In this document: positions 6,734-61,592 of the stretch, in pieces
How positions within the stretch are numbered: position 1 is the first letter of the stretch
How the letters are laid out: each line of letters begins with the position of its first letter
Origin: Candidatus Poribacteria bacterium
Lineage (GTDB): Bacteria > Poribacteria > WGA-4E > WGA-3G
DNA: 64,000 nucleotides
Direction: 5' to 3'
Assembly (NCBI GenBank): GCA_965232115.1
Contig: CBDDPD010000001.1
Location: forward strand, 16,626-80,625
Program-made: the position numbers and the translations under genes
The notes under the pieces: generated by a model
What the model saw: the letters and a program-made list of their open reading frames with translations, nothing else
Database searches by the model: none
Told to the model about the DNA's origin: nothing

Positions 6734-6762
6734 TTGACAAATAGCCTGAAAACCACTATACT
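6734..6762 (+). promoter_or_regulatory. Sigma70-type promoter
   Basis: TTGACA-17 bp-TATACT. Confidence 0.8.
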
Positions 6763-6769
6763 GTTCTCA

Positions 6770-6863
6770 ACGTAGTTGGTAGAGAATGCGATCCGCCTCG
6801 CTTGAGGCGGTCTCTACCGAAACTGAGTCGCATCAGGAACTACGTCGTTGAAGCTACGTGAAC
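6770..6863 (+). ncRNA. Structured leader RNA, copy A
   Basis: P1 ACGTAGTT/AACTACGT; P2 GGTAGAGA/TCTCTACC; P3 CCGCCTC/GAGGCGG; P4 CTGA/TCAG; kissing TGCGAT/GTCGCA; second P1' GCTACGT. Confidence 0.7.
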
Positions 6864-7134
6864 ACGCTACAAATTATACATTCCAGTTGGCTGGCACAGT
6901 AACAAACAGAAGTACATCACGAGACCTACAAGCGCATCTATAACGAGCGGATGTCAGATTTAACGGCACTCTGTAGCAAGTGCCACGAGGCAGCCCATAC
7001 CCGGACCCCCAAAAGCCGAAAGAGAAGCACTACTGGAGAAAGGTACCGAACCCGAAAACCTAAACAACGCAGATTTTATCGAAAACGCAAGCCGAAAACA
7101 AAACGCAATATGTAGTTTTGGAAAGGAGAAATGC

Positions 7135-7629
7135 GTGAAAATCAATATGTCTTTTTATCCTTGTCTGTGTGTTATCATTTTTTGTCTAAGTTTTGTGGGG
7201 TGTGGAAAAACGGATTACATTGTTCTGCGTGATGTCCCACAATCCCCTTCTTTTGTGGTAATTCCTGTTACTACTACTATTTCTGAAGTTAGTTACGCTA
7301 ATAGAGTCGAAAGAGCAATCATCGCTGCTGGCGTTACAGTGGTTCTTCGCCCAGCATTGAAAGAGGTAGAGGAAACTACAACAACTCCAACTAATAATGG
7401 GGACAGCACCACGATTTTGACTGAAAGATATTTTGAACTTGATGAGTTGACTGCGGATTACCTCGTTCAAACTTACGCAACTCCAGCACAAGTCAAAATT
7501 TCAAAACTATCAACCCGTGAAGTCCTCACAATCATAAATGTTGCACGTGTTTCTCGCGGTCAAGGTGTAGAACACCCTAATGATACAATGTTGAAAGTAT
7601 TATCCAAATTACTTGGAATGCAGAAGTAG
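7135..7629 (+). CDS. Putative lipoprotein (moron)
   Basis: Hydrophobic signal peptide with lipobox-like FVGC; AAGGAG RBS. Confidence 0.65.
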   Translation: MKINMSFYPCLCVIIFCLSFVGCGKTDYIVLRDVPQSPSFVVIPVTTTISEVSYANRVERAIIAAGVTVVLRPALKEVEETTTTPTNNGDSTTILTERYFELDELTADYLVQTYATPAQVKISKLSTREVLTIINVARVSRGQGVEHPNDTMLKVLSKLLGMQK

Positions 7630-7822
7630 ATTGATGCTCGTTACTAAAAGGAATTCCGTATCTGCTGTGGTAGAACCCACCGAAAAGTCAACAGGTAACG
7701 CTGAGAATGCCCAGTTGCTTGAATTGGCAGATAGACTTCAGAAACAGAACGAGGTTTTTATGTTACCACCGGAAACGCACACAAAGCCGACATGGTGGCA
7801 ACACTTGACAAGGAAGTAATAC

Positions 7823-8365
7823 ATGGAGAATATAGATTGGTCCGCTTGGATAGTGGCAGCTTCTGCATTCATAACAGCAGTTGCTACTGGTGTTCTCGCT
7901 ATCATTACACGACGATACGTCCGACTCACGCAGGAGATGTTAGAAAACTCCTACAGACCAGAAATTGACCTTCATCTATTAAACACAGGGAGAGTATACC
8001 CCAATCAAGTCGGTGTGGGAGTGGGGAAAGCCGCTTTACTTATCCTCAGTGCAAAAAATATAGGTCCAGGAGTTGCCCGTAAGATTGAGTTTAAAGGGCA
8101 TGATTCTTTCAATCCTGATCCTGATAACGTAGGCAGTTTTCCACTTCAGCACGTTTATTTCCTTGAGGAAAAAAGGGACCGCCTTCTTTCTGGGGATGAA
8201 CTAAAATCACAGGATAATCTTCTTGGGTATAAGTTTGATATGGCTTCAAGCGATCTAAATAAATTTCAGGTTACGATTACAGGGACTTGGGAAGATACAA
8301 AAGGAAAGAAATATTGCGATGATTTTCCTCTCAATTTTGCGGATCCTAATACATGGCGTAAATAA
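7823..8365 (+). CDS. Membrane-anchored hypothetical protein
   Basis: N-terminal transmembrane helix; 180 aa. Confidence 0.6.
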   Translation: MENIDWSAWIVAASAFITAVATGVLAIITRRYVRLTQEMLENSYRPEIDLHLLNTGRVYPNQVGVGVGKAALLILSAKNIGPGVARKIEFKGHDSFNPDPDNVGSFPLQHVYFLEEKRDRLLSGDELKSQDNLLGYKFDMASSDLNKFQVTITGTWEDTKGKKYCDDFPLNFADPNTWRK

Positions 8366-8618
8366 ATTGCTTTGAGAAGTTCCTCATCATAAATTTACAA
8401 ATTTGAGCCCACGCCCCGCCCACACTGCATCACCACACACAACCCACACTCTGCCTGTAAGACGCTTTGAACTCCTTGTCCTGTGGTCTCAGGGGCAAAG
8501 GATAGGGCGGGGATGTGTAAACATATTGACGAAGGGGTTGATATTATGTTTCTTAGACGCACCAGAGAAGAACGGCGAATCGCGACAGATTACACGGTAC
8601 ACAAAAAATAAAAGAATT

Positions 8619-8647
8619 TTGATGTAGCGTCTAAAATGTGGTAAAAT
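8619..8647 (+). promoter_or_regulatory. Sigma70-type promoter
   Basis: TTGATG-17 bp-TAAAAT with extended -10 TG. Confidence 0.6.
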
Positions 8648-8654
8648 GAATATA

Positions 8655-8746
8655 ACTTGCTGGACAGGGATTCCACCTCGGCGCGCTCCAAGTGCCGAGT
8701 CCTGTCCGTACCGCTGGAATGGTAGATAGGCAAGTGGCAAGCGAAC
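8655..8746 (+). ncRNA. Structured leader RNA, copy B
   Basis: P1 ACTTGC/GCAAGT; P2 GGACAGG/CCTGTCC; P3 CTCGGCGC/GTGCCGAG; P4 TACC/GGTA; kissing ATTCCA/TGGAAT; second P1' GGCAAGC. Confidence 0.7.
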
Positions 8747-8831
8747 CTCGAAAACATAAATTTTAATATTTAGTGTGATCTCGTTAATTGTGTGGGGGTC
8801 TCGTGTTTACCCTTTCACGCATTAATTCATA

Positions 8832-9002
8832 CTAAGCTTTGGACAATTTTTAGAGGGATACACATTTCGCCCCACTGGGGCTTGTCTGTGGTGTATCCGA
8901 GTTTCTTTTCGCGTGAGTTGGGTTGGTTTAAGAAACTCACAGAAAAACATATAAACTCTTGAAAGCTCAACTCACAGGCAACACCGATTGTCCAAACTTT
9001 AT
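8832..9002. mobile_element. MITE (~171 bp)
   Basis: Imperfect TIRs CTAAGCTTTGGACAAT / ATTGTCCAAACTTTAT flanked by direct repeat TAATTCATA (8823-8831, 9003-9011). Confidence 0.7.
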
Positions 9003-9026
9003 TAATTCATAGAAGGACTTATTTTT

Positions 9027-10289: not shown

Positions 10290-10296
10290 GTGTATT

Positions 10297-10955: not shown

Positions 10956-10982
10956 AAACATACGAATTTACTGCATTTTTTC

Positions 10983-11157: not shown

Positions 11158-12024
11158 ATGGGGTCTATCTACAAAATCACCAACACTCTCAACGGTAAAT
11201 CTTATATCGGTCAAACCCGCCATGATGCCGTGAAAACGAGAATACGCGATCATCTCAGGGGCAAGGGCAGTCAACCTGTCAAAGACGCTATTGAGAAGTA
11301 TGGACAAGATGCTTTCACCTTTGAAATTCTGCACGATGGCATCATTCCTGAATTTCTTGATGATCTTGAGAAAGAAGTGATTGCGAAGTTCAATACTGTG
11401 TCTCCACACGGCTATAATCTGACGGAAGGTGGTGAAGGTGGATCTCACTGTGAAATAACGCGTCAAAAGTTATCTGAAATCAATAAAGGTAAAAAACATT
11501 CTGAAGAAACTAAGCGCAAACTCTCCGAAGCACACCAGGGACAAATTCCATGGAACAAAGGCAAAACGCATTCAGAGGAAGCGAAACGGAAGATGTCCGA
11601 AAACAATCCAATGAAACGTCCTGAAGTTCGTCGGAAACTCTCTGAAGCAAATAAAGGTAAAAAGCGATCTCCTCTTTCAGAAGAACAGCGTCGGAAACTC
11701 TCTGAAGCAAATAAAGGTAAAGTTTTATCCGCAGAGACACGCCGGAAAATATCTAAAGCAAATAAAGGCAGAGTTTTATCCGCAGAGACACGCCGGAAAA
11801 TATCTAAAGCGCAGAAAAATATGTCTCATTCAGAAGAAGCCAAGCGTAAAATCTCTGAAGCGAAAAGAAGTCCTTACTATAAGGATGCACACTCTTTTTT
11901 TTCTTCCTTACCATCCGATATGTGTTTGAAGAAAAAAAGAAATCTGCTATATGAGAATTTTTCGGATGTCGTGGACACCCGTACAATCCGCCGTTGGATT
12001 CGCAAATGGAACTCTGAAGGATAA
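11158..12024 (+). CDS. Free-standing GIY-YIG homing endonuclease with NUMOD3 repeats
   Basis: SIYKITN...YIGQT motif, GYNLTEGG, repeated [12 protein letters not shown]. Confidence 0.9.
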
Positions 12025-18396: not shown

Positions 18397-18425
18397 TTGA
18401 CATAAATAGTCAAGAATGCTATAAT
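18397..18425 (+). promoter_or_regulatory. Consensus sigma70 promoter antisense to the virion operon
   Basis: TTGACA-17 bp-TATAAT. Confidence 0.75.
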
Positions 18426-18521
18426 ATTGATGTATTGCTGGTAGGGATTACGACCCTCGTCGCAAGGAATTCCTCTCCAAAGACATTCCCGATACATCCA
18501 ACGCTGAACAGAAATACCTGT

Positions 18522-37244: not shown

Positions 37245-37277
37245 AAAAGGGCGGGAAAACTAACTCCCGCCCTTTTT
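37245..37277. terminator. Bidirectional intrinsic terminator
   Basis: AAAA-GGGCGGGA-loop-TCCCGCCC-TTTT between convergent genes. Confidence 0.8.
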
Positions 37278-38203
37278 CACATCATCTCTATCAATGAAGC
37301 AACGAAATCTCTGCAAGACTGAGCATTGCGAGCATTAGGAAGCGGAACGAGTTTCGAGTTTGTTGCTCTTAGTTTTCTCGCTGTACCTTCAATACGTTCT
37401 AACTTCACTTGGCGAGTAGCTGGTTTAACCGAATAATAGAGCACAACAATAGGAAGTGTGCTTGAGTCGTTGGTAAAGCGATCCCTGAAATAAGAAAAAC
37501 TGTCGTATTTGTACGGGTCGCTTCGGTAATATTTTGAGAGGGTTTCATCGGAAATAGGAGCACCGATAGTGTCCTTCTTGAATTCGACAATCGCACGCGG
37601 TGTATAGTTAGAATCTACCAACACTAAATCCGCATCGCCTGGCAACATCGCATCTGTATTATGATACAAATAACAATCCAAGGCTGTTTGTCCATAATTT
37701 AACGTTTTTTTGGTAGAAAATGGTCCGCCTCTGAGTTGCCGGATGCGATCCTTTAAGTTAGGTAGATTAACTTTGCGAATATGTACAACAGTACCATTGC
37801 CATCAAATCCTACTTCTACAACATGCTCTCGGCGAGCGAATAAATGAAGGGATTCCTTGAATAAAAAATAATGGCAAGTAAAATTGTGTGTATGAGCGAA
37901 TCTGCAAAGCTGCCGAACCTTTTTTTCTCCGTCACATCGATATATTTCACTTGGGACATCACCGGCATTTTTCATGGGCCACGGCGTGTAATCGTTGTTT
38001 ACAATTCGCTTTATCCACAGTTCATTTGGGATTGAACGGTTATTCCAATCTACATAAAAATCAAATGTTAATCCGAAAAGGTTATAAGGCTTTAGGTAGG
38101 TATCCGCTAACCATTCCTCTGGATCACCACTTGATGGATGCTTCCTTGCTATAACACTTCGGTTATCGCATCTGGCTAATACCGGTTTACTAAGGCTAAG
38201 CAT
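37277..38203 (-). CDS. PD-(D/E)XK nuclease-like protein
   Basis: PGDADLVLVD...AIVEFKK. Confidence 0.55.
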   Translation of the reverse strand: MLSLSKPVLARCDNRSVIARKHPSSGDPEEWLADTYLKPYNLFGLTFDFYVDWNNRSIPNELWIKRIVNNDYTPWPMKNAGDVPSEIYRCDGEKKVRQLCRFAHTHNFTCHYFLFKESLHLFARREHVVEVGFDGNGTVVHIRKVNLPNLKDRIRQLRGGPFSTKKTLNYGQTALDCYLYHNTDAMLPGDADLVLVDSNYTPRAIVEFKKDTIGAPISDETLSKYYRSDPYKYDSFSYFRDRFTNDSSTLPIVVLYYSVKPATRQVKLERIEGTARKLRATNSKLVPLPNARNAQSCRDFVASLIEMM

Positions 38204-38266
38204 TATTGTGTTCCTTATAGGGCGTTTTGCAGAGGGATTTACGAGAAAACGTCGCTTCCTAGGTAA

Positions 38267-40843: not shown

Positions 40844-40855
40844 GGTGTCACCTCT

Positions 40856-42472
40856 TTATTTTTCAAGTAGTGCGTAGGGGAGTTGGGCAAAAGCGATTCC
40901 CATTTTTGTAAGTTCACGCTGTCCAATGTAATTACCTGCTGCATAGACGACTGCTTTTCTGCCGTTCTTGAAGCTGGCATCTCGGATGCGTTGGGCATGC
41001 TCTTGGGAGAGTATTGCAGCGTCGCTGGATAAAAACTCCAAATTGGGTTGGTAGAGCAAATAGTAATCGTTTTCGCTATCACCATAAAATAATCCATCAT
41101 CATTTTTCGGATTCAGTGTTGTATCACCAACAGACGCGCCTACGGCAGTAAATAACAAGTGTGCAGCCAAATCCGAATACGAGGGCAGAGATTCCCCTGT
41201 AAGCATGCCTTCTATTTCGATAGGTTTGCCCAGAGTGCAGTAGGTGAATGAACCGCCGAGACCCTTCTTCAACGTTTTATCTTTAGCATTCTCAACTCCA
41301 TTTATGACGCGTCGGACGCGTTCAGCAGTGATGCTATCGGCGTAGTCTTCGCATTCTACCAAGATAAACTTCCGATTGCCTCCATCCTCTTTGTTCAGGG
41401 CGAGGACGGCGTGGGCAGTAGTGCCACTGCCTGCGAAGGAGTCCAAGACGATGTCATTGGGTTGCGTCCCTATTTGTAAAATACGTTTTAGCAAAGTGTG
41501 TGGTTTAGGATTCGGGAAGGCAACCCCAATTTTATTCAGCCCTTGCGTTGCACTCTGGGTATGTCCTACATCCTCGTGTAACCATAGAGTTAGTGGCGTA
41601 ATCCCTTGTTTTACCTCCGATAGAAACCGCTTTATGCGAGGAACATTATTGCCATCTTCACCAAACCATATCCGATTATCATTCACTAATATATCAAACC
41701 TCTCTTTACTATATCTCCAACATGTATTTCTAGGCGGGCTCACAACTCTACCGGATGGAGTAGTAATAGGATAGTCATAATCTTCCTGATATGTTTTAAC
41801 ATCCAATCCACTTGAACTCCAAGATCCGCGTGGGTCGTTGTCAGGATTAGAATATCGCTTGTTGTGTTTTTCAGTTCGCGGTAGGAGAATTGGTCTCCAT
41901 ATTTCTTTATCTTTTGCGTAGCACAACACAAAATCGTGATTATCGGAAAAATACTTCGCATCATTTTGCGGACTAAATTTTTTCTGCCAAATTATGTTAG
42001 TTACAAAATTTTCTGTTCCAAAAATTTCATTCATCAGCATTCGCAAATGATGTTGCTCGTTGTCATCAATAGATATAAAAATTACACCGTCCTCAGCAAG
42101 CAATTCTTTTAGCAGGTGCAACCTGGGCCACATCATGCAGAGCCACTTATCATGGCGTTCCATATCTTCGCCGTCAACAGGACTATGCTTTTTGAACCAC
42201 TCCTGCATGGGCGGATTGTTTATATTGTCATTATAGATCCACCGCTCATTTCCAGTGTTGTAGGGCGGATCAATATAGATGCACTTAACACGATTTGCGT
42301 AGTAGGGGAGTAACGCCTTGAGAGCGTGTAGATTATCGCCCTGAATAATGAGGTTATCTTCATTACCCGATGGACTGCAGGACCGGCCTGCATCCTGTCT
42401 AAGTTGTCGGTAGGGGACGGAGAGATGATGTGCATAGATATAGTGTTTTCCTTTGAATTCGAGTACTGGCAT
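40856..42472 (-). CDS. mod: Type III adenine methyltransferase, copy 2
   Basis: DPPY followed by DSFAGSGTT (beta class). Confidence 0.92.
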   Translation of the reverse strand: MPVLEFKGKHYIYAHHLSVPYRQLRQDAGRSCSPSGNEDNLIIQGDNLHALKALLPYYANRVKCIYIDPPYNTGNERWIYNDNINNPPMQEWFKKHSPVDGEDMERHDKWLCMMWPRLHLLKELLAEDGVIFISIDDNEQHHLRMLMNEIFGTENFVTNIIWQKKFSPQNDAKYFSDNHDFVLCYAKDKEIWRPILLPRTEKHNKRYSNPDNDPRGSWSSSGLDVKTYQEDYDYPITTPSGRVVSPPRNTCWRYSKERFDILVNDNRIWFGEDGNNVPRIKRFLSEVKQGITPLTLWLHEDVGHTQSATQGLNKIGVAFPNPKPHTLLKRILQIGTQPNDIVLDSFAGSGTTAHAVLALNKEDGGNRKFILVECEDYADSITAERVRRVINGVENAKDKTLKKGLGGSFTYCTLGKPIEIEGMLTGESLPSYSDLAAHLLFTAVGASVGDTTLNPKNDDGLFYGDSENDYYLLYQPNLEFLSSDAAILSQEHAQRIRDASFKNGRKAVVYAAGNYIGQRELTKMGIAFAQLPYALLEK

Positions 42473-42520
42473 GTTGAAAATTCTCCTTGGATCTTCGTAA
42501 TCCAGCTAAGCGTCACCTCT

Positions 42521-44143
42521 TTACCTTTCGTGTAGTGCGTAGGGGAGTTGGGCAAAAGCGATTCCCATTTTTGTAAGTTCACGCTGTCCAATGTAATTAC
42601 CTGCTGCATAGACGACTGCTTTTCTGCCGTTCTTGAAGCTGGCATCTCGGATGCGTTGGGCATGCTCTTGGGAGAGTATTGCAGCGTCGCTGGATAAAAA
42701 CTCCAGATTGGGTTGGTAGAGCAGGTAGTAATCGTTTTTGTCATCGCTATAAAATAGTCCATCATCGTTTTTGTCATCCAGGGTCGTATCCCCAACAGAC
42801 CTACCAATAGCAGCAAATAACAAGTGTGCAGCGAGTGCTGAATATGATGGCAAAGATTCTCCTGTGAGCATCCCTTCTACTTCAGTAGGTTCTCCGAGTG
42901 TACAATAGGTGAATGAACCACCGAGACCTTCCTTTAACGTCTTATCTTTAGCATTCTCAACTCCATTTATGACGCGTCGGATGCGTTCGGCTGTGATGTC
43001 GTTGGCATAATTTTCACATTCTACCAAGATGAACTTCCGATTGCCTTCGTTCTCTTTGTTGAGCCCAAGAACAGCATGCGCTGTCGTCCCGCTGCCCGCA
43101 AATGAGTCCAAGATGATGTCATCGGGACCGGTAGTTAGTAATATTATATGTTGAATAAGCCCAACGGATTTCGGGGAGTTGAAAACGTTGCCTCCCATGA
43201 TGCTGTTTACTGCCTGGGTAGCGGATTGCGTGGAGCCAACCTCATCCGTTGTTAAAATAGAATTTGATACCATGCCCGACTTCACCTCAGAAAGGTACTT
43301 TTTAAGACGCGGGACGTTTTGGCCTTTCTTCCCGAAAAATAAATATCCTTCTTTGTAAAGGGACAACAGGCGGTCTTTTGTGAATTTAGGAAATGTTCCA
43401 CTCGGTGGGATCCAAGTCACACCGTTAGGAAACGTCACAGTATACACATCTTCAGGTCTACCACTTTTGGCTTGAAGTGCTACGCTCTGCCATGGACCAC
43501 GAGGATCGTTGTCAGGGTTCTTGTATCGCTGATTCGCCTTTTCGCTCCTCGGAAGCAGATTAAACTTTTGAAAGTCATCACTTTTACGGTAACAAACGAT
43601 GTATTCGTGATTAACTGATGCAAACTTTGCATCATTTTGGACAACATTTTTCTTATTCCATACGAACTGTGTTACGAAATTCTCCGCACCAAAAATTTCA
43701 TCCATAAGCATCCGCAGATGATGCAGTTCATTATCATCAATAGAGATGAAGATTACGCCATCATTGCTAAGAAATTCTTTTAGCAGGTGCAACCTGGGCC
43801 ACATCATGCAGAGCCACTTATCATGGCGTTCCATATCTTCGATGTCGATAGGACTATGCTTTTTGAACCACTCCTGCATGGGTGGATTATTTACATTGTC
43901 ATTATAGATCCACCCTTCATTACCGGTGTTATAGGGTGGGTCAATATAGATACATTTGACACGGTTCGCGTAGTAGGGGAGCAAAGCTTTGAGGGCGTGC
44001 AAGTTATCGCCGTGAATGATGAGATTATCTTCCCCATTGGATGGGTTGCAGGATCGGCTTTGGTCGGATTCAAGGGGGCGATACGGGACAGAGAGATGGT
44101 GGGCGTAGATATGGTGTTTTCCTTTGAATTCAAGTGTAGGCAT
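42521..44143 (-). CDS. mod: Type III adenine methyltransferase, copy 1
   Basis: DPPY and DSFAGSGTT; central region differs from copy 2. Confidence 0.92.
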   Translation of the reverse strand: MPTLEFKGKHHIYAHHLSVPYRPLESDQSRSCNPSNGEDNLIIHGDNLHALKALLPYYANRVKCIYIDPPYNTGNEGWIYNDNVNNPPMQEWFKKHSPIDIEDMERHDKWLCMMWPRLHLLKEFLSNDGVIFISIDDNELHHLRMLMDEIFGAENFVTQFVWNKKNVVQNDAKFASVNHEYIVCYRKSDDFQKFNLLPRSEKANQRYKNPDNDPRGPWQSVALQAKSGRPEDVYTVTFPNGVTWIPPSGTFPKFTKDRLLSLYKEGYLFFGKKGQNVPRLKKYLSEVKSGMVSNSILTTDEVGSTQSATQAVNSIMGGNVFNSPKSVGLIQHIILLTTGPDDIILDSFAGSGTTAHAVLGLNKENEGNRKFILVECENYANDITAERIRRVINGVENAKDKTLKEGLGGSFTYCTLGEPTEVEGMLTGESLPSYSALAAHLLFAAIGRSVGDTTLDDKNDDGLFYSDDKNDYYLLYQPNLEFLSSDAAILSQEHAQRIRDASFKNGRKAVVYAAGNYIGQRELTKMGIAFAQLPYALHER

Positions 44144-45170: not shown

Positions 45171-47141
45171 TTATCCATTTCTGTACCATTCCAAAGGTTT
45201 CCATATTTGCCGGATTTCCTCAATGAGTTTTTCGCTACGTGCGTCAATTTCATTGATGTCCCACTGTTCATGTTCTCGGATTTCCCTATTGAGTATTAGA
45301 TTGGAATCCTTTAGAGCCTCCTTCTTCTCGTCAAATGGTCGGTTCCCCAGTCTTGAGTTTAGGGCTTTGTTAACAAGTGTAAGATTTCCAATGCTTTCAA
45401 GGAGTGCATTTCTGGCGATTATTAAATTATAAGCACTGGTATAAGTCTCTTCGACTAATCCCTTATGTGAAGTATCGGTACTTGGATTTGAAAACAATTC
45501 GTGGTAAAGTTTGCGTTCACTTTGCACATTTGTATTTACAATGACCTTGTGTGCGTCCGGATCGAGCGAGACAGCTTTGGGGTTAATCGGTAAATCCCAT
45601 TTTTCCTGCCAAGTTTGTGGCATGACATGTTCTAAATCCAACTTTTCTTCAAAGACTATTTTTTCGCTATATTTGTTATCTCTCTGTTTTTCCATTTCTA
45701 TCCGATATAAAATATAGCGAATAAGTCTTCGTTTTATCGCACCCGCTGTTTGCTCCCAAAGCCCAGACAAAGCCGCTTTTATATACTGATTGTGTGGGAA
45801 AATGATAGTCTCTCTGTCGGGGAAGTTGAGAGGGTTAGGTTCAAAGCGTGTGTATAAAGCATCTCTGATCTGATGGTCTGTTGGGTAATTCGTCGTATCA
45901 GAAGTCTCGTCATCGAGGTATTGTATAAACCCGTCTAAACTAAACCCGCCTTGAAAATGTTTTATAACTCTGGCAAAGAATTTGTTATAATTTTTGAGGC
46001 CGCCTTTACCACTGCAGCATAACATACGCCGGAGCGTGTAAGATTCTAAAATATCAAAGACGCGTTCAAGTTCAGTGTTTCCTAGTTTGGCATCACAAAT
46101 GACAAACAACAAGAAAGGATGCAAGGTGGTCAAGTCAAATATTTTGTAGAATTCCATGCGGGTGGCGATGAAGGTATTTTCATCGCAGTTCGTCATTTCG
46201 CTATAAACATCGGAATACTCTTTTAATAGAATAAACTCATCTTCTACTGTTTTATCCTCCTGTTTAAGTTTATCCATATAATCGCGTTCATAGGTCGTAA
46301 ATTCAGGTTTTACATCTTCTGTTCCGAGATTTGCTATCAAGAAATGATGAAAGAACTGCTCATAGGAAGTGCCTATTTTTGTAATGCCCGGATCCCAATA
46401 ATTATCCTCAAAATGCTCCCAATATTTTTCATATAAATCATCTCTACTTGTGCGAGCTCGTAGGAATAGATTATTGCGGAGTTTATCAAATTCTAACAGC
46501 TCTTTGCCTCTGGCATTCAGCGATTCAAATATCTTTTCCGGTTTATCTGCTTCACTAATGCGGATTTGAACAAAGCCAAAGTTGTTTATAATAACCTCGT
46601 ACAAATTTTTGATTTTTTTCGGGTCTATATCAACGTGGTCCTCTACCTTATCACGAAAATAACTATACGCAGCATAAACCTGCCCGGTGCTATTGCTTCT
46701 GTTTCCATCAATGAGCGCAATAAAAGATGTTTTATTCCGTTTTGTCGGTATGATTTTATAACGCTCCTCTGGCTTGAGTTCAGCCTCCCCATTATTTCTT
46801 ATGTATTTACAAACCTCATTGGCAATCTCCGTATGTCCGTTTTGCATACATATATCTCTGATTGCGCAAAGCATGATTTGGAAAGTTGTCAGTCGCTGTT
46901 GTCCATCAATAATATCAAATATCTGAACACCGGGTGATGCTGGTTGTTGTTGGATAACAATAGTCCCCGTGAAATGACTTGTACTGCCTACCTTCATCTG
47001 CTGTGAAATATCAAGCCATAAAGGTTCCCACTGCTTTGTACGATCCCATACATAATGCCGTTGGAATAAAGGTATCCTAAATTGTACGGAAGGTTTAAAC
47101 ATATCGGATAAGGTTACTTGATCTACATTCATTCTATACAC
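45171..47141 (-). CDS. GmrSD-like DUF262 + DUF1524 (HNH) type IV restriction protein
   Basis: IPLFQRHYVW, DGQQRLTT, FESLNARG; EHVMPQ, IGNLTL...N. Confidence 0.88.
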   Translation of the reverse strand: MYRMNVDQVTLSDMFKPSVQFRIPLFQRHYVWDRTKQWEPLWLDISQQMKVGSTSHFTGTIVIQQQPASPGVQIFDIIDGQQRLTTFQIMLCAIRDICMQNGHTEIANEVCKYIRNNGEAELKPEERYKIIPTKRNKTSFIALIDGNRSNSTGQVYAAYSYFRDKVEDHVDIDPKKIKNLYEVIINNFGFVQIRISEADKPEKIFESLNARGKELLEFDKLRNNLFLRARTSRDDLYEKYWEHFEDNYWDPGITKIGTSYEQFFHHFLIANLGTEDVKPEFTTYERDYMDKLKQEDKTVEDEFILLKEYSDVYSEMTNCDENTFIATRMEFYKIFDLTTLHPFLLFVICDAKLGNTELERVFDILESYTLRRMLCCSGKGGLKNYNKFFARVIKHFQGGFSLDGFIQYLDDETSDTTNYPTDHQIRDALYTRFEPNPLNFPDRETIIFPHNQYIKAALSGLWEQTAGAIKRRLIRYILYRIEMEKQRDNKYSEKIVFEEKLDLEHVMPQTWQEKWDLPINPKAVSLDPDAHKVIVNTNVQSERKLYHELFSNPSTDTSHKGLVEETYTSAYNLIIARNALLESIGNLTLVNKALNSRLGNRPFDEKKEALKDSNLILNREIREHEQWDINEIDARSEKLIEEIRQIWKPLEWYRNG

Positions 47142-47178
47142 CTCTTTTACTTTTCTAAATTCCTAACACTATATTGGA

Positions 47179-47271
47179 TTTCCCAGTCCCAGTCCTTTAT
47201 CCAACTACCACGGTGGAAGGGTGGCAGAATCAGAGTGGGGTCCGATTCGTGGTAGTGCCACCCAAAACTGG
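47179..47271 (-). ncRNA. Structured leader RNA, copy C
   Basis: P1 CCAGTTTT/AGGACTGG; P2 GGGTGGCA/TGCCACCC; P3 GAATCGG/CTGATTC; P4 TCCA/TGGA; kissing CTACCAC/GTGGTAG; second P1' GACTGG; promoter TTGTAA-18-TATACT (47308-47279). Confidence 0.7.
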
Positions 47272-47348
47272 TTTGAACAGTATAATACAAAAAACGAAAA
47301 AATTACAAATTTCCTTCCTGAGGTCCTTTGTCTCTCCTCATTTCCTTG

Positions 47349-47906
47349 TCATGCAGTCAACTGCGCCCACGGATAGAGGTGCGTCCAATCTTTGCTGAAA
47401 ATCACCCGAACTGGTCGATACGCTTCCGCACACAACCGCAAGAAAACGGTATATACCAACGCCCGATGATTCCCATCTTCAAGGTAAAACCTGATTTTCG
47501 GGGAATGTGCGGGTTTCTCATAAGCAGCTAGGGGTCTCACCAACAATTCCCCCATCAAGCGCGGATCAAACCTCGCACTAATAAGAAAGCATCCCTCAAA
47601 CCACGGCTCATCCTCAGAGAGATGCTTAAAAACTTTGATGGGACTCTCGTACGGATATGCCTTCAGAATTCTGTCTACGACTTCTTTCAGCGTGCGCGAC
47701 TTGCCTTTCGGTGTTAGCGTGTCTACCAACTTCTGATTATCCGCCCACACATTGTTATTCGCTTCCATGAAAACGAGGTCATAGAAGTCTACCTCATCTA
47801 GCGTGAACGTTTCGTACACGGCACTCTCTATCCGATGTCGGATGGCTTCGTATTCAGATGGAGATGCTGATAACTGATGTGCATCCGCTAATAGGAGTTC
47901 TTTCAC
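47349..47906 (-). CDS. Hypothetical protein with ParB/Srx-like motif
   Basis: YLEDGNHRAL. Confidence 0.5.
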   Translation of the reverse strand: MKELLLADAHQLSASPSEYEAIRHRIESAVYETFTLDEVDFYDLVFMEANNNVWADNQKLVDTLTPKGKSRTLKEVVDRILKAYPYESPIKVFKHLSEDEPWFEGCFLISARFDPRLMGELLVRPLAAYEKPAHSPKIRFYLEDGNHRALVYTVFLRLCAEAYRPVRVIFSKDWTHLYPWAQLTA

Positions 47907-47908
47907 GT

Positions 47909-48898
47909 TTACCCCTGAAGTAAAGTTTCTTCATAGTACTGAGTAACCCTCAAGACAGGAAGAAAAACTTTGTTCAATGTCTCCAGATTTGTACAAAGCC
48001 ACTCAAATTGATTTAGCCAGTCATTAGGGTTCCTCATATCCGCCTCTTTTTTACAGCCTATGATAAACATCCTTCGACGATCATCCAAAAATAATAACTC
48101 ATCCTCAAAACATCTTTGAAAATACTCCTGTCCGGATTTTAACACCTCAAAAATTTTTTGCGTCTTGTCAACCTGCTTGTTCAAATTAAGGTTAGCACTA
48201 ATTGCAGGATCATTGAGGAAAGATATATTAAAATCAATATGAAACGGGTCAAAACTTTCCATACGAAAGTAGGAACTTCTTGGATTATTCTCTCGTCTTC
48301 CTAAAGGTATAGGTGATATACCTTTGGAAGTATAATATGCGTGGAATTTAGTCCAGTATTGCTGGTATAACTCACTGTCATCGTTCACAGACACTTCTTC
48401 AGGAAGGGTCTCTAAGGGTTGTTGCACGGCAGATTGCTGGTCAGATGGTACACGGGGCCGGTGTACTTTTTTATGACATTTCTCACATAACATTACCAAG
48501 TCAGAAAGAGGTTCCCTCCCGATATTGCCATAGGTTTTATGATGCATCTCAGTCGCCTGAGCCCCACAGACACATAGACTTTTATCACGTTCTCTTACCA
48601 AATCTCGTTTCCTATGCCATGCGGGTGATTTTTTATATTTCTCATAAGTCCCTAAGTCATCGTTTGGGTCCAATGACTTGAGTAAGCAGTGCCAGACCTC
48701 CTCGCGAAAGATAGAAGCCTCCGAAAAATCGGGGTAAAGATCAATTGCTTTGTTGAGGAGTTCTATCGCTATCTCACAGTCATCTGCTGCGGGATCCTGA
48801 AATAAATTGACAGCTGCAGCATAGTAGGTTCTGGCTCTCATTCTGTTATTCATAGTGGACTTCTTTTCAACTTGATACACAGATATTTCTTCTGACAT
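47909..48898 (-). CDS. TPR + HNH + DUF4268-like protein
   Basis: AIELLNKAIDLYPD; W..KR..V..RD..LCVCG...HHKTY...LCEKCH..VH; C-terminal QYWTKF...QFEWL...L.KVF. Confidence 0.7.
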   Translation of the reverse strand: MSEEISVYQVEKKSTMNNRMRARTYYAAAVNLFQDPAADDCEIAIELLNKAIDLYPDFSEASIFREEVWHCLLKSLDPNDDLGTYEKYKKSPAWHRKRDLVRERDKSLCVCGAQATEMHHKTYGNIGREPLSDLVMLCEKCHKKVHRPRVPSDQQSAVQQPLETLPEEVSVNDDSELYQQYWTKFHAYYTSKGISPIPLGRRENNPRSSYFRMESFDPFHIDFNISFLNDPAISANLNLNKQVDKTQKIFEVLKSGQEYFQRCFEDELLFLDDRRRMFIIGCKKEADMRNPNDWLNQFEWLCTNLETLNKVFLPVLRVTQYYEETLLQG

Positions 48899-48963
48899 AG
48901 CATTCTCCTCTTCAATCTCACAATCGAGTTCAAAGCACCACTATTGGAGGGGCAATAAGCATC

Positions 48964-49353
48964 TCATCCCGACAATTTTTCGGCAATCTTCGCGTCAATC
49001 TGCTTCCATTTCCACGGAATCACTTCACCGGCTCCGCGGACTTCACCCGCGGTTCGCTTCTGTGGACGAACCTGAAAAATTGGCTTCCCTAACTGATGTG
49101 TGACCGTTATCTCCTTTTCAACCCCCGGGGCATTGTGTGTATCCTCTCCGACCACAACGATAACGATGTCCGAAAGAGCAATCTGCTTGCGCGCTTTATT
49201 TAACCATTGTGCATCGGGATGATACTGCTCATTCAGGGAATAATCCATAATTTCATATTTTGAGTGGCACTTTGCCTGTGAGTAGAAGTTGTAGTGCAGT
49301 TCATTATCTTTACCGAACTCAAAACTCAAAAATACACGAACCTTTTCCTCCAT
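48964..49353 (-). CDS. TIR domain protein (MTH538/DUF1863, ThsB-like)
   Basis: RVFLSF, SDIVIVVVGEDT, VEKEI (putative catalytic Glu), GKPI. Confidence 0.85.
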   Translation of the reverse strand: MEEKVRVFLSFEFGKDNELHYNFYSQAKCHSKYEIMDYSLNEQYHPDAQWLNKARKQIALSDIVIVVVGEDTHNAPGVEKEITVTHQLGKPIFQVRPQKRTAGEVRGAGEVIPWKWKQIDAKIAEKLSG

Positions 49354-49454
49354 ATCAGCCCTCATCAAAGTTTGATGGACATCCTTATCCCCTTGTGCTG
49401 TGAAATAACAATCTACGCAACGCTTTCCGAACAATTCGCAAGCATAATGTTCAA

Positions 49455-49553
49455 CAAGGCTTCCCTTGGCAACTCAGCATTCAACCCGTATCACGGGGTT
49501 GGATAGGCCTCGACGCGGAGGCGCGCCGAGGTGATACTCCTATCCGCCAAGTT
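49455..49553 (-). ncRNA. Structured leader RNA, copy D
   Basis: P1 AACTTGGC/GCTGAGTT; P2 GGATAGG/CCTATCC; P3 CCTCGGCGCG/CGCGTCGAGG; P4 CAACCC/GGGTTG; kissing GTATCAC/GTGATAC; second P1' GCCAAG; promoter TTGTAA-18-TATACT (49590-49561). Confidence 0.72.
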
Positions 49554-49733
49554 AATGAAAAGTATAGCACAAAATACAAAAAAATTACAAACAAGCGAGT
49601 CCGAATCTACTCCCGAATCATGATAGTCTCCGCATCCTCATAGCCATCAACGTCGACCCTATAAAACCCTCCTCAAAACGGTAGCGGGCTCCAAAGTTTT
49701 TCTCTGCCTCAAAAATCGTTCATGCGTCTACTC

Positions 49734-51503: not shown

Positions 51504-52808
51504 TTACCCAACTTCCCCCATAATCCTCGCCTTCTCATCGTCATACGCCGCATCCACGGGTGCCAGCAACTCCTGACAGAACTCTGCGGCGAGAATGCTA
51601 TCAATGTCTGCTTTCACCATGCCGCCCTTCTGATATGCCGACATCGCCGACGCGTGTTCATCAAGCCGTTGACGGACGATGTAGGATTGGACCCTTTCCG
51701 CCGCAGCTTCCACGAGTTCCGGTTTCGCATGGATGAGTTGACGGATAATGGTATCTCGCTTGACTTTGAACTCTGCCTGCAAGTCCTCAAGTTCCTTTTC
51801 CCTAACTTTCTCGGCTCGCATCTGACGCTCTTTCTGCACACGTTCGTCCTGATAGTTGTCGCGGATCGCCTCAATGATATAACCCGCACGATTCTGCACA
51901 CCTACCGCATCCAGCGACATCTCAATCTTTTCAGAAATATACGCCAGGAAATCTGGGTACGCGCCAGACAGCGGCATCTTTTCAGGATTCACGAAATCCC
52001 ACTCCTGTGCTGCGATCTTCAAGGCAACGTTCCGCTCAATCCTCGCTTGGACGAGTTCAACGGCAACAGGGGGGAGGTTCTCTATATCCGGGAACAACGA
52101 CTCCTGGACCGGGAACTCCTTGACCCTCATGATACGGAACTTCAACTCAGCGATCCGACGCCCCGCGCGTTTCTGCTCAACCTCTACAAGATAGTCCGTC
52201 TCTTTATTGATCTCCTTGACTGCAGGCTTGATAACGGCACGGTTGAAGATACTAAACGCCGGATACTCATCGCTTTCTATCCCGAGAAGCTGTCTAAACG
52301 TCCCAAGTGGAATGAAGGGCGTTTCGCCTTGGTCACGCTCAGTATCAAAATAGTCGAAACACAACTCCCACAAGACCAACGCATACTGCTTTTTGAACCG
52401 GTTTTGCAGACGGAGATTCAACTTGGCGTAGACACGTGGGTTATAGAGCTTCAGACGCAGATGCGGCGCAAAGGCATACGTACAGACACCATCTTCGATT
52501 TCAACGGAAGCCAATAGACCTGCCACACCCCACTTCTGCTTGTTGTCTTTTTCCAAGAGGTTCCATTCAACCTCACACGCACGGAGTTCCCTTAACACCT
52601 CTTTTAGATACTCCTCGTTCTTACTACCGAAACCTAATTTCGCCGCCAATTCCACCATACTCACATGATGAATTTCCTGATTCGGGAGTTCATTGTACGC
52701 ATTGGCGAGTAGCACGTTCCACGCTCGACGTTGCAGTAGCGAAATTTTGCTCTGAATCTGTATCGCTGGACTCGCCTTGACGAATTCGTTGATCTTCGCT
52801 AAATTCAT
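51504..52808 (-). CDS. Plasmid replication initiator (Rep_3/RepB family)
   Basis: ISLLQRRAWNVLL, YAKLNL...FKKQYALVLWEL, FRQLLG...Y...FNRAVIKPAVKEIN; adjacent iterons. Confidence 0.88.
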   Translation of the reverse strand: MNLAKINEFVKASPAIQIQSKISLLQRRAWNVLLANAYNELPNQEIHHVSMVELAAKLGFGSKNEEYLKEVLRELRACEVEWNLLEKDNKQKWGVAGLLASVEIEDGVCTYAFAPHLRLKLYNPRVYAKLNLRLQNRFKKQYALVLWELCFDYFDTERDQGETPFIPLGTFRQLLGIESDEYPAFSIFNRAVIKPAVKEINKETDYLVEVEQKRAGRRIAELKFRIMRVKEFPVQESLFPDIENLPPVAVELVQARIERNVALKIAAQEWDFVNPEKMPLSGAYPDFLAYISEKIEMSLDAVGVQNRAGYIIEAIRDNYQDERVQKERQMRAEKVREKELEDLQAEFKVKRDTIIRQLIHAKPELVEAAAERVQSYIVRQRLDEHASAMSAYQKGGMVKADIDSILAAEFCQELLAPVDAAYDDEKARIMGEVG

Positions 52809-53080: not shown

Positions 53081-53640
53081 TTAACCCCATAAACGTTCAC
53101 TTTAAAGTCAAAACGCCTGAATTATCCTCCAGATACAAGCAGGAATCTACAGGCTTCACCACCGGCTTTTACCTCATTCCGTTGTGTAGTACTTACAGAA
53201 ATCGTAGATTTCCTGTCTGACTTCCTGCTTCGTCGTTTCGTGACTCTCAACGAGGTATTACAGAAACTCCACAGGCGTTTTACGTCTCCTCGCAACTCGT
53301 GGCGAAGGGTTAAGGTTTAAGTTGGACACAGGTTAATAGCAGCATTTAGGTCTCGGAATTCTACAGATTTTCTCGGACTGCACAGGAACTTCCAGAATCC
53401 GCGCCAATCCGCGATTCAGACTTCCCCACAGATGTTCATATTAAGGTTTTTTCTTCATTGTCAAGCTCGCTGAGGATATAGGCGCATTGATTATATTTCC
53501 CCACAAACGTTCATATTAAGGTTTTTTCTTCCCCATAAACGTTCATGTTTAACCCCATAAACGTTCATGTTTAACCCCATAAACGTTCACTTTAATCCCC
53601 ATAAACGTTCATGTTTAACCCCATAAACGTTCATGTTTAA
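53081..53640. repeat. Iterons of the plasmid origin
   Basis: Five tandem 22-bp units CCCCATAAACGTTCATGTTTAA (53531-53640), plus variants at 53085, 53424, 53499; AT-rich tract follows. Confidence 0.9.
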
Positions 53641-55200: not shown

Positions 55201-55393
55201 AGCATCTTGCACCCCATGCAAGCATCTTGCACCCCATGCAAGCACCTTGCACCCCATGCAAGCACCTTGCACCCCATGCAAGATGTCCAGAATTTGAACA
55301 GCCACGCGCCTACGTGTGACGTGGCTTCCGGGCAAACCCTGTTTTCCTTAATTAATTCTTTAATTAATTTTAAATTAATTCTTAAGGGCTTAA
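55201..55393. repeat. Four tandem 20-bp repeats plus AT-rich tract (second origin-like site)
   Basis: AGCAYCTTGCACCCCATGCA x4 (55201-55280); TTAATTAATT tract at 55347-55393. Confidence 0.75.
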
Positions 55394-59224: not shown

Positions 59225-59845
59225 ATGAAGACACTCGCAATCTTGAGCAGGAAAGGCGGGACCGGCAAAACAACCCTCGCGACACACCTATCCGTCGCCG
59301 CGGAACGTGCCGGACACACGACCGCCTTAATAGATTTGGATCCGCAGTCTTCTGCGGCGAAATGGCGTGACAATCGCGATGGCGATACCCCCGCAGTTAT
59401 TTCAACACACTCAGAACGCTTACAACAGATCCTTCAACTCGCAGCGGAAAACGGCGCAACGTTCGCGATTCTGGATACCGCCCCGCATACCGAAGTCGCC
59501 GCACTCGATGCCGCACGTGCTTCAGATATGGCACTCGTGCCTTGCAAACCCTCATTGATTGACCTACAGGCGATCGGCTCCACCATCGATGTTGTCAACC
59601 TCGCAAAAGTGCCGGCACACATCGTTTTGAACGCCGTGCCACCCCGCGGGGATCTCGCCGAACAAGCGCGAGAAGCCGTAGAGGTGTACGATGTCCCCTG
59701 TGCTCCATGCGAAATCGGGCATCGGATCGGTTTCGTCCATGCCTACAACGCAGGGCTGACCGTCCAAGAGTTTGAACCGAGCGGTAAAGCCAGTAACGAG
59801 ATCAATGCACTTTACGCATACATCGCAAATGAGATGGGGGTATAA
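59225..59845 (+). CDS. parA: Type Ib partition ATPase
   Basis: KGGTGKTT, IDLDPQ, LDTAP; short form without N-terminal HTH. Confidence 0.92.
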   Translation: MKTLAILSRKGGTGKTTLATHLSVAAERAGHTTALIDLDPQSSAAKWRDNRDGDTPAVISTHSERLQQILQLAAENGATFAILDTAPHTEVAALDAARASDMALVPCKPSLIDLQAIGSTIDVVNLAKVPAHIVLNAVPPRGDLAEQAREAVEVYDVPCAPCEIGHRIGFVHAYNAGLTVQEFEPSGKASNEINALYAYIANEMGV

Positions 59846-59846
59846 T

Positions 59847-60128
59847 ATGGGAACTGGAAAGAAAGTCAATCTCGCAGAAGTTTTTAGACAGAACGAGGAA
59901 CCCCAGAAACCGGAACTGGAAGTCGTTGAATCTGAACAGTCTGTAGGGGCGAGGTCCCCTCGCCCGCCCTCTCGCGAGAAGAAAAAGCATATCGGCGGCT
60001 ATTTCGACGAAGCCGTCTACCGACAAATGAAACACATCGGTGTCGAGAAGGGAATGACCACGCAAGAGATATTAGCAGACGCGTTGAACGGATTCTTTCA
60101 GCGTAACGATAAACCACCGATTGCCTGA
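59847..60128 (+). CDS. Ribbon-helix-helix partition protein (ParG-like)
   Basis: Follows parA; KKHIGGYFDEAVYRQMK...TQEILADALN. Confidence 0.75.
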   Translation: MGTGKKVNLAEVFRQNEEPQKPELEVVESEQSVGARSPRPPSREKKKHIGGYFDEAVYRQMKHIGVEKGMTTQEILADALNGFFQRNDKPPIA

Positions 60129-60340
60129 GAGGCATTCACGCCTGATAAGCAAAATTACAGGGACACCTGACGGCTGACGGTTAATCGCTGACTGCCGATA
60201 CCCAACACACAGGGCAGAGGCTTGGAAGGGGCTTGTAGGCGATTCTCGACAGGATTTTTTTCAGGGTTATTGGTTATAAGTGGTTATAGGTTTTTAGTTC
60301 GTTCCGCGCAACCCGAACCTACAACCCTACAACGAAAACA

Positions 60341-60550
60341 ATGCTTTCCGATTTACACTTCAATATTTTAGACACTGCCAACCGCGAGGTATCGCGCCGT
60401 TTTGCGAAACTCCGTAAAGCACGCGCCAGTCGCGATCCGAACGGTATCAAACGGGCTGAGATGGCGTATTACCACTCGTTGCAGCACCTTTACGCCGCCG
60501 TGCAAGATGCCGTTGCCGACGGAAGCCCCCCTTCACCTGTAGGAGAATAG
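60341..60550 (+). CDS. Hypothetical protein
   Basis: 69 aa ORF. Confidence 0.4.
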   Translation: MLSDLHFNILDTANREVSRRFAKLRKARASRDPNGIKRAEMAYYHSLQHLYAAVQDAVADGSPPSPVGE

Positions 60551-60674
60551 CCGTAGCCTGCATTCTCACTGCGAAGCAGGCGCAGGGTTTTTGCTGGGGT
60601 GTTTCCCCCAGATATACGTCGATTCACCTTATTTACCTGACCCGCCTGACCGAACCGCAAGGAATAATTAAAAA

Positions 60675-61451
60675 ATGAAAGGCACAAGACCCCTTGACAA
60701 CACAGAAATCCGACTTGTTTCCGCCTGCTTCGACGGCACGTTCGAGGCACGCAACCGCGGGCTCTTCATGCTCGGTGTGAGCACAGGCGGCAGAATAAGC
60801 GAGCTGCTAAGCCTGACGATCGGCGATGTCTATCAGAATCGTGCCGCGGTAACTGACTTGCTTTTTGATAAATCGATTGTCAAGGGGGGGGAAGTCTCCA
60901 GGGCGGTGCCGGTGAACGTCGATGGCAGGCAGGCAATCGAAAATCTTGTCAGTTGGCACCGGGAGCAATACAAGACGCTTGCACCGTCCCGACCGTTATT
61001 CCCTTCGAGAAACAGGAACGGATCTGTGGCGATGAACAGACAAACCGCTCACGAGATGCTCAAGAAAGCGTTTCAAGCCGCGGGACTCAACGGCAAGTTG
61101 GCAACACACAGTCTGCGGAAAAGTTTTGCACAACGTGTTTATGAGGAAAGTGGCGACATCTATTTAGTGCAGGAGCTGTTGGGGCATCGGAACGTCTCGA
61201 CAACCCAGAAGTATATCGGTGTGAATTACGCCACGGCACGGGAGGCAGTCGAAGCGATGGCGTTGGATGCGAAAGCGGCATCTTCTGAACGTGACAGAAC
61301 GGCACTTTTGTCGGGTTCATTCCAGTTTTTAGGTGGAGAACTTAAGCAAACCGCAGACGAAACGCTGTTTCTTGAGTTGGCTCTCCGCGGGTACGACCTC
61401 TCCAAATTGCGGGATGAGCCGACGACTGCGGAGATTATTGAAATCGCATAA
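60675..61451 (+). CDS. Tyrosine recombinase, catalytic domain only (resolvase/invertase-like)
   Basis: TGGRISE, HSLRK, LGHRN..TT.KY; no N-terminal core-binding domain. Confidence 0.9.
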   Translation: MKGTRPLDNTEIRLVSACFDGTFEARNRGLFMLGVSTGGRISELLSLTIGDVYQNRAAVTDLLFDKSIVKGGEVSRAVPVNVDGRQAIENLVSWHREQYKTLAPSRPLFPSRNRNGSVAMNRQTAHEMLKKAFQAAGLNGKLATHSLRKSFAQRVYEESGDIYLVQELLGHRNVSTTQKYIGVNYATAREAVEAMALDAKAASSERDRTALLSGSFQFLGGELKQTADETLFLELALRGYDLSKLRDEPTTAEIIEIA

Positions 61452-61493
61452 GATTCAATTTGTATTTTTTTGCTTTTTGTGATATACTCATAG

Positions 61494-61592
61494 AACTTGG
61501 CGGATAGGAGTATCAGCTCGGCGCGCCCCAGCGTCGAGTCCTATCCAACCTTCTGATACGGGTTGAACGCCAATTGCCAAGGGAAACCTTGT
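61494..61592 (+). ncRNA. Structured leader RNA, copy E
   Basis: P1 5' AACTTGGC with GCCAATT and GCCAAG; P2 GGATAGGA/TCCTATCC; P3 CTCGGCGC/GCGTCGAG; P4 AACC/GGTT; kissing GTATCAG/CTGATAC; promoter TTGTAT-17-TATACT (61460-61488). Confidence 0.72.

Follow-up and report, generated by a model that had tools for sequence, protein, structure and literature searches.

An uncatalogued pseudoknotted leader RNA heads accessory cassettes and TnpB insertion sequences in a Candidatus Poribacteria genome

The window analyzed here, a 64,000-nt stretch of DNA from a Candidatus Poribacteria bacterium, is part of the 84,083-bp second contig (C2) of a 5.5-Mb genome, the chromosome of which is referred to as C1. 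Because C2 encodes phage proteins (terminase large subunit, portal, head protease and major head protein) together with replication-initiator-like and repressor-like proteins, it is, judging from its gene content, a phage-like extrachromosomal replicon. Along the window lie five elements, designated e1 to e5, which an earlier note on this DNA had described as covarying kissing-loop leader RNAs of cargo and defence operons. Element e1 is followed by an open reading frame (ORF) with a lipobox-like FVGC motif, e2, after a gap of ~270 nt, by a signal/anchor protein with a weak Exo_endo_phos match, e3 by GmrSD and then DprA/SLOG, e4 by a ThsB-like TIR protein and then an HNH+DUF4268 protein, and e5 by a C5 methyltransferase and then a HATPase_c_3 protein. 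As judged by the lipobox and by Pfam, this is essentially the cargo listed in that note (lipoprotein, nuclease, GmrSD-DprA, TIR-HNH and methyltransferase-MORC), with the match for the nuclease being weak; also as listed there, no full leader was found before a core phage gene within the window in searches with the covariance models R1 and R2 introduced below. The five elements are true copies of one ~100-nt pseudoknotted RNA family.

All five share the architecture P1-P2-K-P3-P2'-P4(K')-P1', in which P1 is the closing helix of the leader, P2 stacks on hairpin P3 across a one-sided 7-nt bulge (K) present on the 5' side only, and the hairpin P4, positioned after P2', carries in its loop a segment (K') complementary to K, giving a pseudoknot. 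From e1 to e5, the K/K' pairs are TGCGAT/GTCGCA, ATTCCA/TGGAAT, CTACCAC/GTGGTAG, GTATCAC/GTGATAC and GTATCAG/CTGATAC, the last two differing by a single compensatory change from C-G to G-C. Single-sequence folds of e1 to e5 yielded the same nested architecture, with z-scores of -3.65, -2.11, -2.25, -4.35 and -3.81, respectively. The sequences, including the K/K' pairs and the P2 strands, read as the earlier note had described them, and both folds and models agree with its structure; the true 3' extent of each element, however, lies ~15 nt beyond the earlier boundaries, with a second P1 3' strand included and, in e2, e4 and e5, a small hairpin within the extension.

Each element begins a few nucleotides past a sigma70-type promoter, as had been claimed, with those of e1 to e4 recovered by promoter scan. 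Leader e1 (type C; 6767-6866, + strand) follows TTGACA-17-TATACT (6734-6762, +; 11 of 12 consensus matches), with P1 formed by 6770-6777 and 6838-6845, K at 6787-6792, K' at 6827-6832 and the second P1 3' strand at 6853-6859. Leader e2 (type D; 8652-8759, +), with the tandem 3' strands GGCAAGT/GGCAAGC, follows TTGATG-17-TAAAAT with TG (8619-8647, +). On the opposite strand, e3 (type B; 47164-47275, -) has the tandem 3' strands GGACTG GGACTG and the promoter TTGTAA-18-TATACT (47279-47308, -), while e4 (type D; 49445-49556, -), which contains a P5 hairpin (CAAGG-GAAG-CCTTG) and an AACAT tail, has TTGTAA-18-TATACT with TG (49561-49590, -). Finally, e5 (type D; 61491-61600, +), likewise including the P5 hairpin, follows TTGTAT-17-TATACT with TG (61460-61488, +), a promoter that was read by eye from the sequence and not by the scan.

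Given all five copies, MAFFT misplaced e1 and e3, and the models were therefore built from subsets that could be aligned. A covariance model of e2, e4 and e5 only (R1; alignment A3), used in an unfiltered search of the whole window on both strands, gave as its next-best matches after the training copies e3 (29.9 bits, E 6e-6) and e1 (24.5 bits, E 2e-4), with all remaining matches at E ~1 or worse. Reciprocally, a model made solely from 15 chromosomal copies of the TnpB type (R2; alignment A7) retrieved all five window elements: e1 at 34.5 bits (E 1e-7), e3 at 29.5, e5 at 25.8, e2 at 22.5 and e4 at 16.9 bits (E 0.02). A structure descriptor that requires P2, the bulge, P3, P4, K/K' and P1 gave the five elements scores of 34-38, and nothing else on the 84-kb contig exceeded 31; in a first-order Markov simulation of 2 Mb, three matches reached at least 34, i.e. 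~0.13 expected on the 84-kb contig.

Covariation was examined in two larger alignments. In a 17-copy MAFFT alignment (A6), 90.6% of the cells were paired vs. 76.3% in shuffles and 37-44% with the partner slid; K/K' was 95.8% paired, with both sides changed in 6 of 7 pairs, and the outer pair of P4 was A-U in some copies and U-A in others. With 29 copies of all types (A9), the nested part of which was fitted to the model, 87.4% of the cells were paired vs. 59.0% in shuffles, with both-side changes in 33 of 34 pairs, and the pseudoknot, though absent from that model, was 73% paired. Since the aligned copies are paralogues and relatives, their independence is overstated by the shuffle controls; neither the slid controls nor the number of pair types is affected by kinship. 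In the paired columns, G-U exceeded A-C by 41 to 16 in A6 and by only 62 to 45 in the mixed A9, a modest point that favors a fold of the sense strand. The two alignments thus bear out the claim of a covarying structured RNA with kissing K and K', as every helix and the K/K' pseudoknot are supported by covariation. We rejected a DNA-level repeat or protein operator, given that the sequence of the repeated strands varies from copy to copy, with concerted changes, and thus offers no common protein site. Unpaired positions that recur in A9 are few, namely the U before P2, the A opening K, the ends of the P4 loop and AA(A) in J4/1.

The comparison with Rfam that the earlier note had called for returned no matching family. 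In Rfam 15, the whole window at the gathering threshold (the sole Rfam coverage of e5) gave 0 matches, while at E up to 10 the regions 6700-8800 and 47100-49650 gave chance matches only, the lone one overlapping an element being KCNQ1OT1_1 (6.0 bits, E 10) on the opposite strand of e2. Six full TnpB loci of the chromosome, searched at E up to 1, gave a weak HgcC match 3' of one tnpB (locus L011, E 0.015) as sole match. A known RNA family was accordingly rejected for the leader. Literature on TnpB left ends, structured RNA, promoters and untranslated regions (UTRs), in a search that had the supplements of motif papers outside its scope, yielded no description of the leader. The term Poribacteria-1 RNA motif is absent from the main text of PMC2864571 and PMC5737381; should that motif be one of the 4227 Rfam families, it gave no match either. 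The leader is an uncatalogued RNA family of a broadly known kind, i.e. a promoter-proximal structured leader, whose link to TnpB is undescribed.

The same RNA is much more widespread on the chromosome, which holds ~30 further copies that we found with the descriptor and an nhmmer profile, the first of them by a genome search with R1; each is preceded by a consensus promoter, TTGACA-17-(TG)TATAAT. Among 39 places catalogued in the genome, 19 have a TnpB ORF or fragment within ~10 nt and one more retains the first tnpB codons only, with TnpB identity being assigned by Pfam (OrfB_IS605, Cas12f1-like_TNB and HTH_OrfB_IS605). Conversely, a leader lies upstream of 18 of the 19 loci with a TNB domain in a Pfam search of the genome (the exception is a fragment) and upstream of 19 of 20 TnpB loci found by tblastn, and the TNB genes that bear it span divergent TnpB subfamilies. 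Because two identical insertion-sequence copies have ~120 nt upstream of the start in common, including the left-end hairpin, the promoter and leader must lie inside the insertion sequence, the order of which is left-end hairpin, promoter, leader and tnpB start. The tnpB start codons are without a Shine-Dalgarno motif, as compared with about half of the long ORFs in the genome that have a Shine-Dalgarno-like one. P1 starts 4-7 nt past the -10 hexamer in 19 of 26 copies scored, which is where transcription is expected to start given the usual spacing from the -10 box.

Chromosomal copies outside TnpB elements precede a Dam-type methyltransferase with a partner ORF, an N6_N4 methyltransferase-HNH fusion, a sulfotransferase, an FGE-sulfatase, a cupin with enoyl-CoA hydratase, a secreted metalloprotease and unknown ORFs; in addition, one copy lies ~560 nt upstream of an HU gene and another precedes a Rieske/cytochrome b operon, behind a conserved stretch of ~230 nt. 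That stretch, with long complementary segments after the leader, occurs at C1:78300-78490 (-) and C1:3797500-3797730 (-), one of which precedes the Rieske operon; it had no Rfam match at E up to 1 and may be a second, separate structured RNA. With most copies in chromosomal TnpB elements and others before HU and Rieske/cytochrome b, the leader does not stand as a phage invention or as a marker of defence operons. The wider notion of a leader for accessory and defence genes holds in part: it does head such cassettes in the window and in relatives, but in the genome as a whole it sits mostly in chromosomal TnpB elements and also before host genes. The distance from leader to gene ranges from 2-6 nt, at the AUG of tnpB, to ~270-560 nt. 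Because the spacing varies and the cargo is diverse, a generic role on the transcript is indicated rather than a gene-specific one.

In relatives, we searched with a model of 29 copies of all types (R3), the per-genome match counts of which are not copy numbers. Matches were present in 56 of 56 genomes of the same genus, 89 of 99 of the same family, 12 of 26 of a second family, 1 of 10 of a third and none of 15 genomes from six further families of the phylum; in all, 103 of the 151 sampled genomes had a match, and the matches numbered more than 1,300. An earlier sample of the genus had matches in 36 of 36 genomes, from a few to at least 61 per genome, and the type of e2, e4 and e5 (R1) was present in 31 of 40 other genomes of the genus. 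To survey the cargo in relatives, one locus per genome was taken (29 loci), and 20 downstream proteins from 19 loci were scanned with Pfam. Type D leaders were found to precede a UvrD-type helicase, a NotI-like endonuclease, a methyltransferase-HNH fusion, an HSDR_N-like protein and a ParE-like toxin; the other proteins identified were an FRG-TPR protein, DUF6884, DUF805, a weak DUF7382 and HU, and 10 of the 20 scanned had no match in Pfam. In several species, the copies linked to HU at corresponding places retain P1 and P5, with K/K' and P3 wholly different yet complementary.

A feature common to every copy, and absent from the earlier note, is that the P1 3' strand is present twice in tandem (X'a and X'b), both covarying with the 5' strand X, with 84.9% paired for P1a and 86.8% for P1b; column 11, for instance, is CG, AU, GC or UA with both partners. 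In constrained folds, the two alternatives differed by a mean of 2.4 kcal/mol, and P1b was the stabler one in 5 of 29 copies. P5, closed by a GNRA-like loop, arises by pairing of X'b with a segment downstream of it and is present in the e2/e4/e5 type and in the copies linked to HU and Rieske genes. In TnpB copies, the AUG lies 2-6 nt past X'b.

Additional traces of the family are found on C2. A degenerate sixth copy, comprising a TTGACA-17-TATAAT promoter and a leader remnant (18397-18498, +), retains P1 and the 5' half of P2/K/P3, with the 3' half gone and a fold no better than shuffles (z -1.08). It lies on the opposite strand within the head/tail gene block, is followed by a 152-aa ORF without a Pfam family and looks like a decayed moron. 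A promoter-less fragment of a TnpB-type (type A) leader at 32369-32464 (+) consists of P2/P3 only (R2 22.4 bits; no stable fold). A further full leader, with an enlarged P3 and its own promoter, is positioned at C2:5300-5427 (-), on the same replicon outside the window.

Based on these data, we tentatively propose, with a probability of about 0.4, that the leader is an autonomous 5'-terminal structure that sequesters the 5' end of the mRNA and functions as a stabilizer/insulator. The 5' end would be hidden inside P1 or, in the P5 type, within a P1/P5 coaxial stack, P5 being able to stack on P1 and bury the end, while the pseudoknot would lock the core; the transcript would then be shielded from decay that depends on the 5' end, and the downstream message would be insulated from its context. 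The start of P1 4-7 nt past the -10 box fits the geometry of a stabilizer, the start position itself being predicted; the host encodes matches to RNase J (RNase J_C), RNase_E_G and Rho, and no sense-strand terminator-like site was found inside the leaders or the e3 and e4 operons. Promoter plus leader would represent a portable module from which mobile and accessory genes are expressed independently of context, and homology between copies may provide recombination handles for cargo swapping. In contigs from four public runs, several retain e4 up to its 3' edge (49445) and then jump to 47411, 47910, 48842 or to 487 other letters, and read depth piles up on two leaders, as expected of a repeat. 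That relatives carry different cargo behind the same leader is only a hint from these contigs, which were aligned at 85% likeness.

A number of points weigh against the stabilizer/insulator proposal: 1) RNA data came from a single run that accounted for a small share of the stretch and took the form of assembled contigs, one of which continues upstream past the e4 promoter; 2) the transcription start is placed by promoter geometry alone; 3) a plain 5' hairpin suffices for known stabilizers, so that the elaborate, strictly conserved fold hints at a more specific role, with a partner such as a protein, RNA polymerase or the ribosome; 4) the conserved tandem P1 3' strand, with its two near iso-energetic states, looks like a switch, and the proposal accounts for the duplication only in the P5-bearing type; 5) the tight link to TnpB (18/19) could reflect a transposon-specific function.

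One alternative, unlikely in our view but deserving some weight, is processive antitermination or anti-Rho activity of the put type, whereby the nascent leader stays on RNA polymerase and enables read-through of terminators, so that transcription would reach the 3' guide RNA across a tnpB lacking a Shine-Dalgarno motif and would also traverse long foreign defence operons and the extended 5' UTRs of the HU gene and the Rieske operon. According to PMC9378689, HK022 put is ~70 nt with two stem-loops, is located just past an early promoter, acts on intrinsic and Rho-dependent terminators, and has copies that differ in sequence with the stems kept. The leader is indeed always promoter-proximal and in cis, Rho is present in the host, and many copies are followed either by untranslated stretches (~230-560 nt at C1:78589, C1:3797851 and C1:2213459; ~270 nt after e2) or by tnpB without Shine-Dalgarno. 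The put-like antiterminator offered in the earlier note nevertheless fails on architecture, with four helices and a pseudoknot in ~100 nt as opposed to two stem-loops in ~70 nt, and the leader has no testable likeness to put in sequence; moreover, no sense-strand terminator-like site was found in the e3 and e4 operons or between e1 and e2 and their genes, save a weak GC hairpin at 8869, by a terminator scan with which Rho-dependent sites are not predictable.

On a more speculative note, and with comparably low odds, the leader might belong to a new class of bacterial RNA that acts by shape on the machinery of expression, being either a protein-independent licence for RNA polymerase to pass Rho and terminators or the first bacterial counterpart of the viral exonuclease-resistant RNA (xrRNA), with the tandem P1 strands as a two-state device and the module having been taken up by phages and defence islands as a ready-made expression cassette. 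Under the licence version, a message with scarcely any translation would suffice for TnpB transposons to produce their 3' guide RNA.

We surmise that a regulatory switch is rather improbable. Here, a protein, small molecule, temperature or the ribosome would determine whether X pairs with X'a or X'b and thereby whether the start region or a partner is accessible, and in TnpB elements the switch would throttle tnpB translation while the guide RNA stays abundant. Both 3' strands do covary with X in near iso-energetic states, and with the AUG 2-6 nt past X'b in TnpB copies, P1b would cover the ribosome landing site and P1a would free it. However, in the HU and Rieske copies, as in all five of the window, a long distance separates the leader from the first ORF, and the e3 gene has its own Shine-Dalgarno-like AAGAGG, so a translational switch cannot be the general role. 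In addition, few unpaired bases are conserved across types, leaving no obvious ligand pocket, and the terminator scan found no terminator/antiterminator pair.

Still more doubtful is a transposon-specific element that controls the transposon or the dosage of TnpB vs. guide RNA, the copies elsewhere being co-opted left-end remnants that serve mainly as strong promoters. The presence of the leader on 18 of 19 TNB-domain genes and the location of promoter and leader inside the insertion sequence speak for it, as does debris in the window, namely the leader fragment at 32369-32464 and a relic at 53178-53366 (-) with a TnpB C-terminus (..NAAINL) and guide-RNA/right-end-like sequence, with no intact tnpB adjoining. 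Against it, the window copies keep the full fold with compensatory changes, which implies that the RNA itself is under selection there, and the HU-linked copies keep the fold despite different K/K' and P3, pointing to its maintenance at a host gene. We also rejected the idea that e1 to e5 represent the left ends of IS200/IS605-like transposons that carry cargo: when 17 left-end regions of the chromosome served as nhmmer queries, the 84-kb contig gave 0 matches at E up to 0.01, i.e. no left-end hairpin upstream of the window copies, and right-end/guide queries found one relic only, that at 53178-53366, which resembles the 3' ends of six chromosomal TnpB elements (best E 5e-22). Likewise rejected was pairing of the leader with the guide RNA of the same element, as 7-mers of K or K' occur in the 3' region of 0 of 14 elements.

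A ribozyme was also raised in the earlier note. A small self-cleaving one (of the hammerhead, twister, twister-sister, hatchet, pistol or HDV-like kind), which would cut the leader off its message, is highly improbable, for although the compact pseudoknotted fold is tied to mobile genes, with which several ribozyme classes associate, known small ribozymes have invariant cores and the leader has just a handful of conserved unpaired positions, no CUGANGA/GAAA core in e1 to e5 and no match to Rfam 15 ribozymes even at E up to 10 around e1 to e4. An independent small-RNA gene was rejected as well, on the grounds that no terminator-like site lies past the leaders and that the AUG follows within a few bases in TnpB copies.

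Several neighboring features are recorded here in their own right. The e3 operon continues (37277-44143, -) from GmrSD-DprA into a pair of paralogous N6_N4 DNA methyltransferases (538 and 540 aa) as well as a ResIII/DEAD helicase; inside each of the methyltransferase genes (40878 and 42543), the opposite strand carries an identical 24-nt hairpin sequence, and megablast of 38267-44143 against a phage collection gave no match. Downstream of the e2 cassette is a GIY-YIG/NUMOD3 homing-endonuclease gene (11158-12024, +). Between the replication-initiator-like gene (51504-52808, -) and an HNH-like gene are two repeat arrays, one of five 22-nt units (CCCCATAAACGTTCATGTTTAA) at 53531-53640 and one of four 20-nt units with internal dyad symmetry at 55201-55282, which may be iterons or an origin. 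On the chromosome, a leader copy heading a small secreted ORF is preceded, at ~400 nt, by a full Y1 (TnpA) transposase gene (C1:2312051-2312395, +), of which the genome has only two; the many TnpB elements here appear non-autonomous.

TnpB transposons are the ancestors of Cas12 and are under development as compact genome editors. The leader represents an unrecognized part of the anatomy of TnpB elements across a bacterial family and could set the amounts of nuclease and guide RNA. That the same RNA precedes restriction-modification, GmrSD, TIR and MORC-type cassettes on the phage-like replicon, and defence-type genes in relatives, suggests a portable promoter-leader part of natural origin that is exchanged by mobile elements. 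As an RNA, it constitutes a large new family with unusually clean covariation, a bulge-loop pseudoknot and a duplicated helix strand.

Among known systems, the left end of IS200 has a 5' UTR with a simple stem-loop, near the start codon, that hides the Shine-Dalgarno of tnpA. Within the IS200/IS605 superfamily, the leader too is a structured 5' UTR located in a left end close to the start codon, but it has no Shine-Dalgarno, its gene is tnpB, it forms a pseudoknotted three-way arrangement and it also occurs outside insertion sequences. The TnpB guide RNA (omegaRNA/reRNA; Rfam HgcC) is also a structured RNA encoded by the same insertion sequences. Whereas the guide RNA occupies the 3' end of tnpB and extends into the flank, the leader is 5' of tnpB, starts at a promoter and carries no guide, and a separate conserved 3' region exists in the TnpB elements. 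Set beside a riboswitch, the leader has two alternative P1 helices, covarying and near iso-energetic, that might serve as an expression platform; no terminator or Shine-Dalgarno-sequestering helix was found, and the 29 copies of A9, whose helices vary freely, display no pocket of highly conserved unpaired nucleotides. The xrRNAs of flaviviruses and plant viruses combine a compact junction with a pseudoknot and few conserved bases and are thought to act by shape; we know of no bacterial counterpart. Their pseudoknot threads the 5' end through a ring, whereas in the leader K/K' connects a hairpin loop with an internal bulge, the 5' end being located in P1. HK022 put (putL/putR), a protein-independent antiterminator, resembles the leader in being a cis-acting structured nascent RNA after a promoter of a mobile element. 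It lacks the bulge-loop pseudoknot and duplicated 3' strand, and it precedes terminators, as opposed to the leader, downstream of which no sense-strand terminators were found and which is chiefly an element of TnpB transposons and the host. Finally, 5'-terminal stem-loops that stabilize messages, as in the ompA 5' UTR and the ermC and aprE leaders, work with any downstream message and occur on highly expressed genes. As is predicted for the leader, their helix takes in the first transcribed bases; these known stabilizers are simple hairpins, whereas the leader is a large family with a conserved, multi-helix, pseudoknotted fold.

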